Shown: piece after piece, positions 1-9,145 of the stretch
Layout of the letters: each line of letters starts with the position of its first letter
Position numbering within the stretch: position 1 is the stretch's first letter
Origin: Thermoproteota archaeon
GTDB taxonomy: Archaea; Thermoproteota; Thermoprotei; Thermofilales; B9-G17
Direction: 5' to 3'
Length of the DNA stretch: 64,000 bases
Assembly (NCBI GenBank): GCA_029258885.1
Contig: JAPDJW010000002.1
Coordinates: 448,001 to 512,000 of the forward strand
The notes under the pieces: generated by a model
What the model was told of the DNA's origin: nothing
What the model saw: only the letters and a program-made list of their open reading frames with translations
Database searches by the model: none
Position numbers and translations under genes: made by a program

Positions 1-650
1 TCAAGAACCAGCCTAAAGCCCTGACATACATCCTTAACGTAGACAAACTGTACAAGATTCCTACCTGAGCCCACTATAAACCTCGTCGCAAGAGAGTTTC
101 TCGCAAGGGATGTAATAAAGTAGTATGATACATCGTTTACATTTCTAGGCCCATATACGCCAGATGGCCTAACAATAGTTGCCTTAAGCCCCTTCTTCAT
201 GTATTCCTTAACCACGTTTTCCGCCGCCAGCTTTGATCGACCATACTCGTAAACTGGGTTTGGAGGAGTATTTTCATCAGCTGGCGGATTCTTCACTGGA
301 CCTATGGCTTCAGTAGTACTACAATAAATAAACCTATCAACACCATTCTTTAAAGCCGCTTCAATAAGCCATCTAGTTCCCTCAACATTAACCTTCCAGT
401 ACAGCTTCTTCTTACCGTGAAACGTATAGTATGCAGCAAGATGTATTATAGCATCAACTCCCCTAGTAACGTTAACGAGTGAGGGTGGATCTGTTAAATC
501 ACCGTATCTAAGTTCAACTCCAAGTTCCTTAAGCAGATCTATCTTACTCGTCTTCCTAACCATGCCAATAACCGTATAGCCCTTAGATAGGAGGTTTTCA
601 ACCAAGTGTCCGCCTATAAAGCCGGAGGCGCCTGTAACAAGCACTTTCAA
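1..650 (-). CDS. NAD-dependent epimerase/dehydratase (extended SDR), truncated by the window edge
   Basis: Manual translation from TTG at 650: MKVLVTGASGFIGGHLVENLLSKGY...IIHLAAYY...VNVEGT...FIYCSTTEA, with a later YGRSK (YxxxK). GxxGxxG Rossmann motif. Start overlaps the luxC-like stop (TTGA). Absent from the ORF track because it runs off the edge. Confidence 0.9.
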   Translation of the reverse strand, partial: MKVLVTGASGFIGGHLVENLLSKGYTVIGMVRKTSKIDLLKELGVELRYGDLTDPPSLVNVTRGVDAIIHLAAYYTFHGKKKLYWKVNVEGTRWLIEAALKNGVDRFIYCSTTEAIGPVKNPPADENTPPNPVYEYGRSKLAAENVVKEYMKKGLKATIVRPSGVYGPRNVNDVSYYFITSLARNSLATRFIVGSGRNLVQFVYVKDVCQGFRLVL

Positions 651-2107
651 ATAACACCCACCTCCCTACGCCTAAGGTAAATTGAATATGTAAGCTCTCT
701 AGCTAGGTACATTCCATCAAACGGTTCAATGGCACTACGCATATACATATCTCTAAGCGGAACTATCCTATATACACGTAGCTTACATAGATTGGAGATA
801 AAGGCTTCAGCATCTTTCTCTGGGAGAGCATACCCTACAGTCTGGACTCCATCAACCTCCTTGAATGTTTCCCTATGCGGAATGTTCTCTATTAACTTGA
901 TGGCTTGATCAACCGTGTTCACACTAACAATTTCGATAAACCTCTTCCTAACGTGCAACTGATACTCAGGGAAGAACTCAATGACCTTATCTAAGACGGG
1001 CTTATCCTTAGAGACGACTATAGTCCAGGAAATATCTCCATTGTCGGGCGTAAACACTTCACACTCCTCAAACGTTAAAGCTCTCCTAACACTATGGACT
1101 AAATATCTCTCACTATCGTCGAGCTTCAGCGGAAATTTCTCAGAGTAGCCGTTAAGCCTCAAGCCTACCTTCGACGCAAATTCGATTAATTCCTCGTAGC
1201 TACCTATAAAGGTTGCTTCTGTAGGGGAGCTACACAGTTGTTGGTCGTATAGAACTATGTTTAAAGCAAGATCGTCAGCCGCCTTATCGAGATCCACGCC
1301 ACTACCTACAACAGCATATCCAGTTAAGGGACCGTTAACCATAAACTTAGGCTTGTGGGGATTACGTGCCACTTTCTCAGCTATGATAGTCCTAGCGGGC
1401 TCGCCTCCCCAAAAGTTCACGAGGTCAACCGGGGCCTTCTCCAGGAGATACCTTAAGGCTTCACTGTTGTGTCTCATATATGCGATTAGAATAGCATTTG
1501 ATAGAACCTCGGCTTCAGGATATTCGTCTGCTAGATCTAGAAGTAGCCTATAGACCTCAATAACGCCTAAGTGATTGGCTATTGAAGGCTTAAGTACAGT
1601 TACGTTACCCATTGCAAGAGATATGCACGTTGGAATTAGCGGCGGGATAAAGGAATTGCCAGCACCTATGATAAACACTGTGCCTATGGGGACGTGCCTG
1701 ACGTATTCGCCTGGTCTGAACTCTATGAAGCTGTCGATAGCCTTAACTCCACCGGGAAGTCCTACCTCAATGTTAGACAGTATATTATCATTATTAAATA
1801 ATATAGAAACAAATTTGAATTCTAAGTCTATGAGTTTCTCGCTATACCCAGTTTTCTCGGAAAGTTTTCTTTTGATGTTATTCAGCTCGCCCCTACGAAC
1901 CTTTTCATGCCATTTCTTGCCTATTAAACCGAGAATTTCCAGCCTCCTTAAGATGGGTATCTCCATCAGCTGTTTTCTAATAGCATGCGCCTTCTCTAGG
2001 ATTCCTTTAAGCGATTTAACTGTAGGCTCTACCACTGTTAAGTTGCCTAAGTTAAACGTCTCCTTTTCGATGGCCGTTTCCCTTCCGTGGAGAATCTCCA
2101 GCTGCAC
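647..2107 (-). CDS. LuxC-like acyl-CoA/acyl-protein reductase (ALDH superfamily)
   Basis: ALDH-type motifs GAGN..P, VLKPS and FWGGE, plus LYDQQLCSSP matching the LuxC catalytic Cys motif (YDQxACxS). Confidence 0.8.
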   Translation of the reverse strand: MQLEILHGRETAIEKETFNLGNLTVVEPTVKSLKGILEKAHAIRKQLMEIPILRRLEILGLIGKKWHEKVRRGELNNIKRKLSEKTGYSEKLIDLEFKFVSILFNNDNILSNIEVGLPGGVKAIDSFIEFRPGEYVRHVPIGTVFIIGAGNSFIPPLIPTCISLAMGNVTVLKPSIANHLGVIEVYRLLLDLADEYPEAEVLSNAILIAYMRHNSEALRYLLEKAPVDLVNFWGGEPARTIIAEKVARNPHKPKFMVNGPLTGYAVVGSGVDLDKAADDLALNIVLYDQQLCSSPTEATFIGSYEELIEFASKVGLRLNGYSEKFPLKLDDSERYLVHSVRRALTFEECEVFTPDNGDISWTIVVSKDKPVLDKVIEFFPEYQLHVRKRFIEIVSVNTVDQAIKLIENIPHRETFKEVDGVQTVGYALPEKDAEAFISNLCKLRVYRIVPLRDMYMRSAIEPFDGMYLARELTYSIYLRRREVGVI

Positions 2108-2110
2108 TTA

Positions 2111-3385
2111 CTACTCCACCTTCCTTCCCTCAGTCATAAGCTCCTCGAGAGTTCCTCCACAGGCCCTCTGTAGATCCCACCCTTCCTCCTTTGTCAATCG
2201 TCTAACGTAGACGTACTCCTTCCCATAGTATCTATCGGAGGGATGAGATCTAAGTATATCGCCCGGATAAAATACTTCAAGCCATGATGTCGTAAATGGA
2301 TTAAACATTCCAAGTATACCCTCACCATCTTCATGCATCATTTTAAACGTCTTCGGCTCCAGCAGAAATACGTGAGTAAGAGGATGAGGCATCAGATCCA
2401 TGACGCCAAACCTACTAATGAGGGCAGCTAACGTTTCAGTCATACCTAAAACATCCATAAATGGTACATCAATCTTTTCTCCTTTCTCGTTACGTGCATA
2501 GAAGTGTCTTCTAGCAAGCTCCACGATCTTATCATAGGGCGGTAGATCGGTAAAGCCCTTAGTACCACCTCCAGTTACTATAACTCCTCCCCTACCTAAA
2601 TCGACGGGCGGCGCTCCGGTTAAAATCCTCGTAAATATCCTCTTGATAAATCCAAGTTCACCGAACTTCTTAGAAAGCAGGTACACGCCAGCTGGCGCAG
2701 TAAAGAACAGCTTAGGCTCCTCCTTACTCTTCAGGAACTTAACCAGGTTATCCTTATTTGGAACGAGCCTCTGCCAAGGAGTCCCTTCCTTAACACCCGT
2801 TAAAAGTCTCATACCATAAAGCAATTCAATGCCCTTAGCCTCTAGAGCATAGTGTACGAACGCGACGAAATTCAGTCGCTCCTTAAGCTCAGGAGCCGCC
2901 ATAAACAACGCTATACCCTTATTCTCCTCGAGTTCCCCACCATACACATACTCGAACAACGCCGTATTTACGGTTATCATGATGGCTAAATCGAGGGGAC
3001 TCCTATAGACTTTAACGGGATTCCTACCCGTAGTACCGCTCGACATAAAGTATTTGCCACCGAGCTCAACATCCCTTATCAGGAACCTCTTGTGTCCCTC
3101 ACCCCTAATAAGCTCAGAAGGCACAGCAAGCTTTTCGAGATCCTCAAGCTCAGCATTCCTCGGATTAATATCCAGCTTCTCAAAAAGCCTAGCATAGTAG
3201 TCACTGTGTCTCCTGAAGTAATCTAAGGCCTCCCTTAAAAGACTTCTCCTTAAACTAAGCAAGTAATCAGGCGATTTTTCAAACAAGCTTCTATCGTGAA
3301 CTAGCTCCCATATCTTCTTAACGTAGGGATCCTCCCTCAGAAGCCTGCTTTGAGACGCCTTCTCAAGTATCTCGGATACTTTCAT
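2111..3385 (-). CDS. LuxE-like acyl-protein synthetase (ANL adenylate-forming family)
   Basis: FMSSGTTG AMP-binding P-loop, IVTGGGTKG, DVLGMTE, YPGDIL, and a C-terminal RACG Cys positioned like the LuxE acylation site. Lies directly upstream of the luxC-like gene. Confidence 0.75.
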   Translation of the reverse strand: MKVSEILEKASQSRLLREDPYVKKIWELVHDRSLFEKSPDYLLSLRRSLLREALDYFRRHSDYYARLFEKLDINPRNAELEDLEKLAVPSELIRGEGHKRFLIRDVELGGKYFMSSGTTGRNPVKVYRSPLDLAIMITVNTALFEYVYGGELEENKGIALFMAAPELKERLNFVAFVHYALEAKGIELLYGMRLLTGVKEGTPWQRLVPNKDNLVKFLKSKEEPKLFFTAPAGVYLLSKKFGELGFIKRIFTRILTGAPPVDLGRGGVIVTGGGTKGFTDLPPYDKIVELARRHFYARNEKGEKIDVPFMDVLGMTETLAALISRFGVMDLMPHPLTHVFLLEPKTFKMMHEDGEGILGMFNPFTTSWLEVFYPGDILRSHPSDRYYGKEYVYVRRLTKEEGWDLQRACGGTLEELMTEGRKVE

Positions 3386-3593
3386 TAAGACACCTCAAAC
3401 CAATATCTAAACCATCAGAAATAAATACTTTGACGTAAACCCTGTCAACAGATAACGAAGAACATTCATCAACCCGAAAAGGGTGTAATTACGGGGTATA
3501 GGGTGTTTATGCAAGCTAGCTAGTTTCCGTAATTATAGTGGGTACTAAGATAAGGTTTTAAGCTAGCGTATGCTATTATCTAAATAGCTAGGT

Positions 3594-3806
3594 ATGTATA
3601 AGTATATCGAAGTTAAACCCGACGTATGCGGAGGAAAGCCCGTTATCAAGGGTACGCGTGTCATCATTGAGATTATTTTAGAGTCGCTTGCTAATGGATG
3701 GAGCGTAAAGGAAACAGCAAAGGAATTTAAAATACCAGTAGAGGCGGTCCTGGAAGCATTGAAGTATGCCCATAACATAGTATCTAAAATAAGTGGCTAT
3801 GTATGA
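3594..3806 (+). CDS. DUF433 family antitoxin
   Basis: PDVCGGKPVIKGTRV motif typical of DUF433; stop overlaps the ATG of a PIN-like toxin remnant. Confidence 0.9.
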   Translation: MYKYIEVKPDVCGGKPVIKGTRVIIEIILESLANGWSVKETAKEFKIPVEAVLEALKYAHNIVSKISGYV

Positions 3807-4128
3807 TACTTGCCGATGAAAGCATACATTATTCGCTAATAAAGGAGCTGAGAAGACTAGGCGTCATTGACACAGAGCTTAGAGGAATTTTCGATATAGA
3901 ACTAATTGAACTGGCCAATAAGAGAAACATGATCATATTGACTGAGAGCAGGGATTTTCTAAAAAACTATTAGGAGGAAGGTAAGGACAGGTTTAATGTA
4001 TGTATATTACTATAACTAAAGACAACTGTAGGGAGATAGCTGATCTCATCAGCCGTCATCTAAATAGGGCCAGAAATAACCTTATGATAGTTTACCGGGA
4101 TTATGTAGAGATAATAAGCCTGAAGTAA
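3803..4128 (+). pseudogene. DUF5615 PIN-like toxin, disrupted
   Basis: Manual translation MILADESIHYSLIKELRRLG...FDIELIELANKRNMIILTESRDF then a stop. A C-terminal-like segment (...ARNNLMIVYRDYVEIISLK*) continues in another frame. Confidence 0.7.
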
Positions 4129-5451: not shown

Positions 5452-5964
5452 CTATTGATACATCCTAACTCTATCGGAATATTTTTTATGTATAAGCTTC
5501 TCAAGCTCTATCCTAAGCTTTCTATCCAACTCCCTCTGCGAGGAGGAGAGCCCTTCAAGAGGCTTCGCTAATCCGAGTAGCGGTCCTTTAATCAACACGT
5601 AGTTATCCCTTAACTCAGGCTCAGCAACAGGCCTAGTTTTAGCCAATATATCAAGAAGTTTAACAGGGTTCTCCTTCAGAGTTTTCTTCAAAATCTCGCT
5701 CGGCAACTCTCTTATTCCGAAAGTAAAGGGTATTGAATCAAGGAAGCTTCTAAGATCACCCGTAACGCTTAGTTCGGCGCCGAGGCCTACGAGCCTATAC
5801 GGGTTAAGAGGCCAAGCCTTTATCTTCCATCCCCGAGAGGAGTGGGAGATCAGGAAATCCAGGTATCCGTACCTATCACGGCTAGCTAAAAACCTCCAGT
5901 TGAGAGGATTTTTCCTATACTTGTTTACAACTATCCTGAGTATTTCATCGATATTTCTAATCAT
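5452..5964 (-). CDS. conserved hypothetical archaeal protein
   Basis: Intact 170-aa ORF filling the gap between recognised genes; no known motif. Confidence 0.7.
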   Translation of the reverse strand: MIRNIDEILRIVVNKYRKNPLNWRFLASRDRYGYLDFLISHSSRGWKIKAWPLNPYRLVGLGAELSVTGDLRSFLDSIPFTFGIRELPSEILKKTLKENPVKLLDILAKTRPVAEPELRDNYVLIKGPLLGLAKPLEGLSSSQRELDRKLRIELEKLIHKKYSDRVRMYQ

Positions 5965-8468: not shown

Positions 8469-8909
8469 TTAAGCCTTAATTAATTCCTCTGTCGTGTATA
8501 GGATAATTCCTTTACCTAAGATCTTAGTTAATACGTCCCTACTCTCCTGAATTCTTTTTTTAAGTTTCTTATCGTCTGTTACTAGTTTTGCATCTAATTC
8601 ATATGATACAACCACGTATGATGCATCATAGTATGTTATATTAAGTTCATGTGCTAGATTTAGTACAAGCGAGGTATCGTGTGGAGCAACGATATGTAAA
8701 ATATTGAATATATTATTAGTTAGAGACAGTAGCAGTAATGCTTCATCAATAGATATTCTGTTTAGTAGTGTGGCTTCTTTCCATAGAGCATTACCTACTT
8801 CATAGGGGGTGAGAGTCAAAATATAGTTTCCTTTCAGGTATTTGTATGCGGATGACCCAATAGTCCTAATTAGGTTTAGTAGTGCTGAAGAATCGAAGAC
8901 GAGCTTCAT
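8469..8909 (-). CDS. vapC: VapC PIN-domain toxin
   Basis: LVFDSSA, YEVGNALWK, ITYYDASY and LVTDD PIN acidic residues. Confidence 0.9.
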   Translation of the reverse strand: MKLVFDSSALLNLIRTIGSSAYKYLKGNYILTLTPYEVGNALWKEATLLNRISIDEALLLLSLTNNIFNILHIVAPHDTSLVLNLAHELNITYYDASYVVVSYELDAKLVTDDKKLKKRIQESRDVLTKILGKGIILYTTEELIKA

Positions 8910-9145
8910 CTCTCCTCACGACTAAGACGTATAATACTGGTTATTTCTTCAGCAGGTATCTTTCTTAGAATTTTACTAGCTTCATCTAAAGACTCCTTAA
9001 TCTCTTCCTCTTCTCTTTTTCGCACCTCCTCTTCTAAAGCACTTCTAATAACATCGCTAATTGTTATATTATACTTCTTTAGTTTATTGTAGAGTTCTCT
9101 CCTAATTTTAGCTGAAACTGTAACATAGTCCACGTAGAACACCAT
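8906..9145 (-). CDS. vapB: VapB/CcdA-like ribbon-helix-helix antitoxin
   Basis: VTVSAKIRRELY...ISDVIRSALEEEV; 4-bp overlap with vapC. Confidence 0.85.
   Translation of the reverse strand: MVFYVDYVTVSAKIRRELYNKLKKYNITISDVIRSALEEEVRKREEEEIKESLDEASKILRKIPAEEITSIIRLSREER

Follow-up and report, generated by a model that had tools for sequence, protein, structure and literature searches.

A LuxE-like, LuxC-like and short-chain dehydrogenase gene cassette of many archaeal lineages, probably reducing a carboxylic acid without a luciferase

To our knowledge, no characterised carboxylate reductase other than the LuxC-LuxE system carries its acyl group on a protein cysteine, and bioluminescence is essentially the only setting in which this system is known. 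In LuxE of Photobacterium, Lys238, Arg354/355 and Cys364 are functionally important (Tian et al. 2022, PMC9157457), and homologues of luxC and luxE also occur in flagellin glycosylation islands of Aeromonas (PMC7874193). The locus described here lies at the left end of a 64,000-nucleotide stretch of archaeal DNA, hereafter the window (positions 448,001 to 512,000 of contig JAPDJW010000002.1 of a Thermoproteota archaeon; G000:C1:448001-512000 in our numbering), taken from a genome of 2.1 Mb that is 99.9% complete. It consists of three minus-strand genes in a row, for a LuxE-like protein, a LuxC-like protein and an extended short-chain dehydrogenase/reductase (SDR). Our analysis suggests that these genes form a self-contained accessory cassette which probably reduces a carboxylic acid to an aldehyde and then to an alcohol in an ATP- and NADPH-dependent manner, and which moves laterally.

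The LuxC-like protein is a clear member of the LuxC family by Pfam, by profile search of the PDB and by fold. Its match to PF05893, a family that an earlier note on this DNA had proposed to search for, has an E value of 2.2e-35 (122.8 bits, cut-off 21), against 39 bits (4.8e-10) for the generic aldehyde dehydrogenase (ALDH) family PF00171, and the gene is the sole PF05893 gene in the genome. Photobacterium LuxC (7xc6_A) is matched at 2.5e-14, with YDQQLC placed over YDQQAC, and for a profile of 19 archaeal homologues LuxC is the sole match in the whole PDB (4.6e-23). The AlphaFold2 (AF2) model of the protein (predicted local distance difference test, pLDDT, 92.9) has 7xc6_A as its best fold with template modelling (TM) scores of 0.81/0.82, whereas ALDHs reach only 0.61-0.71. 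Cys292, catalytic by homology, is invariant in 19/19 homologues and passes a 93% conservation cut in a set of 68 sequences, and the surrounding QQLCSSPT is conserved as well.

For the LuxE-like protein the evidence comes mainly from profile comparisons. A profile of 22 of its homologues, searched against the PDB, has LuxE (7xc6_E) as its best match, at 5.4e-4 over two stretches, with PaaK at E values of 0.2 to 0.55 and over the N-terminal 90 residues only. When 1.84 billion cluster representatives were searched with the same profile only 76 proteins were found, and three of the more distant full-length matches, when tested, proved to be genuine members of PF04443, the Pfam LuxE family (1e-40 to 1e-62). 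Alignment of the profile with six PF04443 proteins by hhalign gave a probability of 99.75% and an E value of 1.9e-27 over 357 columns, pairing the cysteine of QRACGG with the invariant RGCA motif of these proteins. Lys276, Arg395/Arg396 and Cys409 are invariant in 22/22 homologues and align with Lys238, Arg354/Arg355 and Cys364 of LuxE, and the neighbours of the protein in a language-model atlas are LuxE clusters. In NCBIfam it has only a weak N-terminal match, to the flexirubin ligase FlxY. The AF2 model (pLDDT 85) has a PaaK/ANL fold, with a disordered tail after Cys409. Because the profile, hhalign, residue and neighbour results all place it with LuxE, we assign the protein to a sister family of LuxE, divergent enough to escape Pfam; as judged from these alignments, its homology to bona fide PF04443 members extends over the full length. 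The earlier note had pointed to the SSGTTG loop, the RACG cysteine and YDQQLC, all of which are retained in the translations. It had also named what would speak against its reading, namely better scores as PaaK or generic ALDH, cysteines that vary among homologues, or luxAB/luxD next to the genes; the sequence profile ranks LuxE above PaaK, LuxC scores above ALDH, neither cysteine varies, and a search of the genome found no luxAB or luxD family gene.

The third protein is an extended SDR with the TGxxGxxG and S/T...YxxxK signatures. The full-length protein matches PF01370 at 3.5e-53, and its best solved relative is the putative oxidoreductase 3wj7 (3e-40). Residues T6-G13, S111/T113, Y136, K140 and Arg32 lie above the 93% conservation cut in 62 SDR homologues, and since a conserved Arg follows beta-2 (Arg32), the sequence suggests NADP(H) as the cofactor.

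The genes are tightly coupled, and the 3-bp gap and TTGA overlap reported in the earlier note can be read directly from the sequence. At the junction of the LuxE-like and LuxC-like genes (...GGAAGGTGGAG TAG taa GTG...) three bases separate the stop codon from the GTG with which the LuxC-like gene begins, and at the next junction (...GGGAGGTGGGTGTTAT TTGA AA...) the LuxC-like gene ends in a TGA that shares bases with the TTG start codon of the SDR gene. Shine-Dalgarno motifs of the GGAGG/GGTGG type stand ahead of both junctions, and from this arrangement the three genes are predicted to be translationally coupled. Upstream of the LuxE-like ATG (3383-3385) we find the TATA-like AAAGTATTTATTT at 3419-3431, at a distance of about 39 nucleotides, and a GAGGTG Shine-Dalgarno motif at 3391-3396. 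The features of the cassette are collected in Table 1.

Table 1. Genes and sequence features of the cassette, in window coordinates.
Feature	Position	Strand	Remarks
Putative promoter and ribosome-binding region of the operon	3391..3431	-	Inferred, read from the sequence
LuxE-like acyl-adenylate/acyl-protein synthetase, putative	2111..3385	-	424 aa
P-loop SSGTTG	3026-3043	-	LuxE-like protein; checked by translation
Lys276 in TGGGTKG	2555-2575	-	LuxE-like protein
Arg395/Arg396 in YVRRL	2195-2209	-	LuxE-like protein
Putative acyl-accepting Cys409 in QRACGG	2153-2170	-	LuxE-like protein; checked by translation
LuxC-family acyl-thioester reductase, putative	647..2107	-	486 aa
Catalytic Cys292 (by homology) in YDQQLCSSP	1223-1249	-	LuxC-like protein; checked by translation
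Extended SDR, N-terminal 216 aa inside the window	1..650	-	Listed as open reading frame 3-650, open at the edge; remaining 345 nt left of the window; full protein 331 aa, G000:C1:447655-448650 (L006:15655-16650) in the whole-genome sequence
TGASGFIG	612-635	-	SDR; checked by translation
Arg32 (NADP-type)	within 549-563	-	SDR
STTE	309-323	-	SDR
YGRSK	231-245	-	SDR; checked by translation

The earlier note had called such a module unexpected in an archaeon, which overstates the case. Among 80 related loci that were fetched, 62 keep the LuxE-LuxC-SDR order, the exceptions being mostly contig ends, and the trio is conserved across phyla: it is found in this order in Brockarchaeota, Methanomethylicia, Odinarchaeia, Nitrososphaeria, Methanomassiliicoccales, Sulfolobales/Desulfurococcaceae, Thermofilaceae and Methanofastidiosia. 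LuxE-like homologues of 57-70% identity occur in all of these lineages, with hot-spring members of Nitrososphaeria and with Zestosphaera among Sulfolobales/Desulfurococcaceae, and in Archaeoglobales, and more distant relatives are present in Theionarchaea, other Asgard groups and one actinomycete (Pseudonocardia sediminis). Beyond the trio, no gene family is common to more than 19 of the 80 loci. In three loci of the Methanomethylicia type (L035, L049 and L085) the LuxE-like gene stands alone and is directly followed by genes for a glutaredoxin and an FTR-beta/rubredoxin protein, and sister genomes have the full trio ahead of the same two genes, a pattern suggesting that LuxC and SDR were secondarily deleted.

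Within lineages the cassette is patchy. It is present in 8/41 genomes and 4/21 genera of the order to which the window belongs, in 3/8 genomes of one genus of that order (where three closed genomes have it and two do not), and in 26/151 Methanomassiliicoccales genomes of at least 85% completeness, corresponding to about 17-20% of genomes in the two orders sampled. In six genomes of the window's order the cassette is flanked by unrelated genes. A quick maximum-likelihood tree gives the window copy a long branch of unresolved position, outside a clade of Thermofilaceae and Sulfolobales copies that has 100% support in the Shimodaira-Hasegawa-like approximate likelihood ratio test (SH-aLRT). Because of the patchy presence, the unrelated flanks and the tree position taken together, we regard the cassette as a self-contained accessory unit that has been gained, lost and probably transferred laterally among anaerobic archaea. 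The GC content of the window copy is 44.1%, within about one standard deviation of the contig, and its base composition shows no sign of recent transfer.

Some neighbours recur beside the cassette: a gene for a MenA-like UbiA prenyltransferase lies directly after the SDR gene in 15 Methanomassiliicoccales loci, a ComB-like phosphatase gene lies nearby in 7 loci of Brockarchaeota/Nitrososphaeria, and the glutaredoxin and FTR-beta/rubredoxin genes lie nearby in Methanomethylicia. We considered each as an obligate partner and rejected it, as each is restricted to one lineage; moreover, searches of the window's genome revealed no such UbiA and no ComB-like protein, and UbiA, present in 67/151 Methanomassiliicoccales genomes, is common without the cassette.

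By analogy with LuxC-LuxE, the LuxE-like enzyme would adenylate an acid with ATP by means of its SSGTTG P-loop, Lys276 and Arg395/Arg396, and the acyl group would then pass to the enzyme's own Cys409 on the flexible C-terminal tail. This tail may pass its load on to Cys292 of the LuxC-like protein, which would release an aldehyde using NAD(P)H, and the co-translated extended SDR, with its NADPH-type Arg32, would most likely convert the aldehyde into an alcohol. While homology, conserved catalytic residues, operon coupling and the conservation of the trio across phyla can be read from the sequences, we infer the relay between the cysteines, the cofactor, what the SDR does and in which direction the reaction runs. 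An acid-to-aldehyde module of LuxE and LuxC, with the SDR acting further, had been proposed in the earlier note; homology and conserved residues bear out this mechanistic core, and the products suggested there, such as an n-alkyl ether lipid or a signal molecule, have no specific evidence in their favour.

Several observations weigh against such a LuxE-type cassette, and most of them concern the LuxE-like protein. The protein has no Pfam match of any kind, even at an E value of 10, and a search of the whole genome with PF04443 found nothing, so that the search proposed in the earlier note gave no match to this family; a precomputed PF04443 match is present in only 2 of 120 listed homologues. 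The best solved folds for the AF2 model are PaaK-type coenzyme A (CoA) ligases (E value 9e-13, TM about 0.58), and several homologues carry the name 'phenylacetate-CoA ligase' in IMG. These folds and names fit an ordinary acyl-CoA ligase of the PaaK type, with the LuxC-like enzyme reducing free acyl-CoA and no relay from cysteine to cysteine, and LuxC itself accepts acyl-CoA as a donor (PMC9157457). Given the failed Pfam model and the PaaK-type folds such a CoA-dependent route is possible, yet we judge it very unlikely: the C-terminal QRACG cysteine is invariant and aligned with the acylation cysteine of LuxE, the sequence profiles lead to LuxE-family proteins and not to PaaK, the protein itself matches no Pfam family, and a six-frame search of the whole genome did not find PF14535, the PaaK-type C-terminal domain. 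Moreover, because the 7XC6 structure resolves no more than 118 LuxE residues, the fold ranking gives the PaaK assignment no preference. A different objection comes from the SDR, whose nearest named relatives, all far below the family cut-offs, are HpnA, OleD, SdmB/3-beta-hydroxysteroid dehydrogenase (3-beta-HSD), sugar-nucleotide dehydratases and thioester-reductase domains; relatives of the HpnA, OleD, 3-beta-HSD and sugar-nucleotide types might mean that a keto or sugar group, instead of an aldehyde, is its target. Finally, one predicted LuxE-like/LuxC fusion of 884 aa (P0134), with both cysteines kept, gives weak Rosetta-stone support for the pairing, but its 54%-identical relative consists of two overlapping genes and the fusion is possibly an artefact of assembly or gene calling; no fusion came to light when proteins of more than 743 aa were searched for such forms. 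This relative, on metagenome contig Ga0209636_10017366 (L087:240-4044), is a distant LuxE-like/LuxC pair with no SDR, and a radical SAM/SPASM gene overlaps it from ahead. A link between the cassette and radical SAM/SPASM proteins was rejected, as it is not conserved: the radical SAM gene 7.4 kb from the cassette is not adjacent, and is only 23% identical to that of L087.

If the cassette is a LuxE-type carboxylic acid reductase, fatty, aromatic and small polar acids are all candidate substrates, none with specific support. An aromatic or aryl-alkyl acid, of the kind proposed for EhpF/EhpG acting on phenazine-1,6-dicarboxylate, would agree with the fold comparison, in which the LuxE-like protein best matches enzymes that adenylate aryl acids (PaaK, NatL2, AjiA1, ClxA and the phenazine protein EhpF, 3l2k/3hgu), and in phenazine clusters ehpF (AMP-binding) adjoins ehpG (ALDH-family). 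In Methanomassiliicoccales this idea can be tied to the MenA-like UbiA that directly follows the SDR, with a prenylated aromatic or quinone-like product; UbiA occurs in 22/26 cassette-positive against 45/125 cassette-negative genomes of that order, in a comparison made by hand between genomes that are related and thus not independent. On the other hand, the similarity to PaaK reflects the shared ANL fold, and UbiA was found neither beside the cassette in other lineages nor in the window's genome, and is present in many genomes that have no cassette. We therefore consider an aromatic substrate unlikely.

A long-chain fatty acid, leading to a fatty alcohol or aldehyde for non-isoprenoid ether lipids or for a signal molecule, is in our view slightly less probable still. 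It would follow the only characterised LuxC-LuxE pair, which reduces myristate (PMC9157457); Trp111 of the LuxC cleft pairs with Phe in the aligned stretch of the window's LuxC-like protein, and the SDR has sub-threshold matches to fatty-acyl and thioester-reductase-type domains (PF07993 at 4.6e-24, TIGR01746 at 4e-22). Arg55 and Arg239, however, which reach a conservation of at least 90% among the archaeal LuxC-like proteins, are matched by Ile in Photobacterium LuxC, and none of the 80 loci shows a lipid-synthesis gene linked to the trio. A core membrane-lipid role is disfavoured because presence is patchy even within one genus; most genomes of the same orders and genera lack the cassette. 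A broader proposal, which we find doubtful but worth stating, is that the cassette represents an undescribed archaeal route in which a protein-thioester carboxylate reductase makes a specific aldehyde or alcohol building block and is laterally traded among anaerobic archaea. The building block could be an alcohol of the fatty or isoprenoid kind, a hydroxy- or phospho-acid in reduced form, or the precursor of a prenylated aromatic carrier, and if this were true, carriers of the cassette would have a distinct metabolite that cassette-free sister strains lack.

The earlier note had also suggested that the operon may continue beyond the window edge. The sequence to the left indicates otherwise: the SDR gene is completed there, and 40 nucleotides after it lies, on the same strand, a gene for an M20 deacylase of the ArgE/DapE type. 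The 40-nucleotide spacer contains AAAGCTATTTATTTTT, which is close to AAAGTATTTATTT upstream of the LuxE-like gene; both read as TATA-like boxes, and the M20 gene probably has its own promoter. Since a TATA-like box of its own precedes the M20 gene, and since the gene is missing from all 80 related loci and also from six genomes of the same order, we rejected it as a fourth operon gene, and for the first two of these reasons the operon appears to end at the SDR, with no conserved continuation.

The genes around the cassette are unrelated to a lux operon. Beyond the M20 gene, and convergent with it, lies a DUF364/DUF4213 'heavy-metal chelation' gene, which adjoins an iron-uptake block at L006:10457-14404 (G000:C1:442457-446404) in which a gene for a DtxR-type repressor bearing a FeoA domain is joined by feoA and feoB. 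On the other side, between the cassette promoter and an M28 peptidase gene, a plus-strand pair with overlapping stop and start at 3594-3973 encodes a DUF433 protein (70 aa) and a DUF5615-Mut7-C-like protein (56 aa) and resembles a small module of the toxin-antitoxin type; a 71-aa minus-strand open reading frame at 3563-3778 is probably a shadow of this pair. The minus strand carries another toxin-antitoxin-like pair at 8469-9145, in which the gene for a CcdA-type antitoxin of 79 aa overlaps that for a PIN-domain protein of 146 aa. A minus-strand open reading frame of 170 aa (5452-5964), with no Pfam match, separates the M28 peptidase gene from a short thymidylate-synthase-like gene.

Literature searches on LuxE/LuxC in archaea or Thermofilum, on archaeal acyl-protein synthetase and on 3WJ7 found no description of the archaeal cassette. 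A sister system of LuxC-LuxE that is so highly conserved (the LuxE-like protein and the SDR are 50-70% identical across phyla) and present in many lineages represents a gap in archaeal metabolism. Our analysis adds the profile-profile link to LuxE with its aligned catalytic residues, the family size, the frequencies in two orders, the co-occurrence with UbiA and the operon end at the SDR. The cassette could supply thermostable catalysts, free of CoA and phosphopantetheine, for converting acids to aldehydes or alcohols, and closed genomes of one genus with and without it make comparative metabolomics feasible, if the strains are cultured.

Among described systems, LuxC-LuxE of Photobacterium phosphoreum (7XC6; PMC9157457) shares with the archaeal cassette an ANL-type adenylating enzyme with a C-terminal acyl-Cys and an ALDH-fold reductase with a single catalytic Cys, and Lys238, Arg354/355 and Cys364 of LuxE as well as Cys296 of LuxC all have conserved equivalents. 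Sequence identity to the luminous pair is only about 20%, however, and the archaeal LuxE-like protein falls outside PF04443. The gene order is E-C in the archaeal cassette and C...E in luminous bacteria, luxAB, luxD and luxG are absent, a conserved SDR is added, and the host is an anaerobic archaeon. In agreement with the earlier note, which saw no luciferase, the genome has no match to PF00296 (luciferase) or PF02273 (LuxD) in searches with positive controls, and the cassette does not belong to the bacterial lux operons of bioluminescence.

The PaaK-type ligases 2Y27, 2Y4N and 2Y4O share with the LuxE-like protein the N-terminal helical region and the SSGTTG P-loop and provide its best solved fold. 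The LuxE-like protein differs from them in lacking PF14535, in a profile E value of only 0.2 and in an invariant C-terminal Cys in place of CoA chemistry; having neither PF14535 nor a family-level sequence match, it is not expected to be a PaaK phenylacetate-CoA ligase. In EhpF/EhpG, from the phenazine (D-alanylgriseoluteic acid) cluster of Pantoea/Proteus, an adenylating enzyme likewise stands beside an ALDH-family gene, and the two proteins reportedly are proposed to reduce an aromatic carboxylate to an aldehyde via an adenylate. EhpF is among the fold matches of the LuxE-like protein, but more weakly than PaaK or LuxE, and its genes lie inside a phenazine cluster, which the archaeal cassette does not.

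Carboxylic acid reductase (CAR) and the fungal alpha-aminoadipate reductase Lys2, in which adenylation, carrier and SDR-type reductase domains follow each other, have the chemistry in common with our proposal, namely conversion of an acid to an aldehyde via a thioester with ATP and NADPH, and the weak thioester-reductase-domain matches of the SDR recall them. They are, however, single polypeptides with a phosphopantetheine carrier, where we propose a protein Cys carrier and an ALDH-fold reductase for the archaeal system. The Aeromonas pairs (PMC7874193) are bacterial, linked to acyl carrier protein (ACP), FabG-type and glycosyltransferase genes, and likewise uncharacterised in their biochemistry; what they share with the archaeal cassette is a LuxE-LuxC pair, free of luciferase, within a non-luminous biosynthetic locus.

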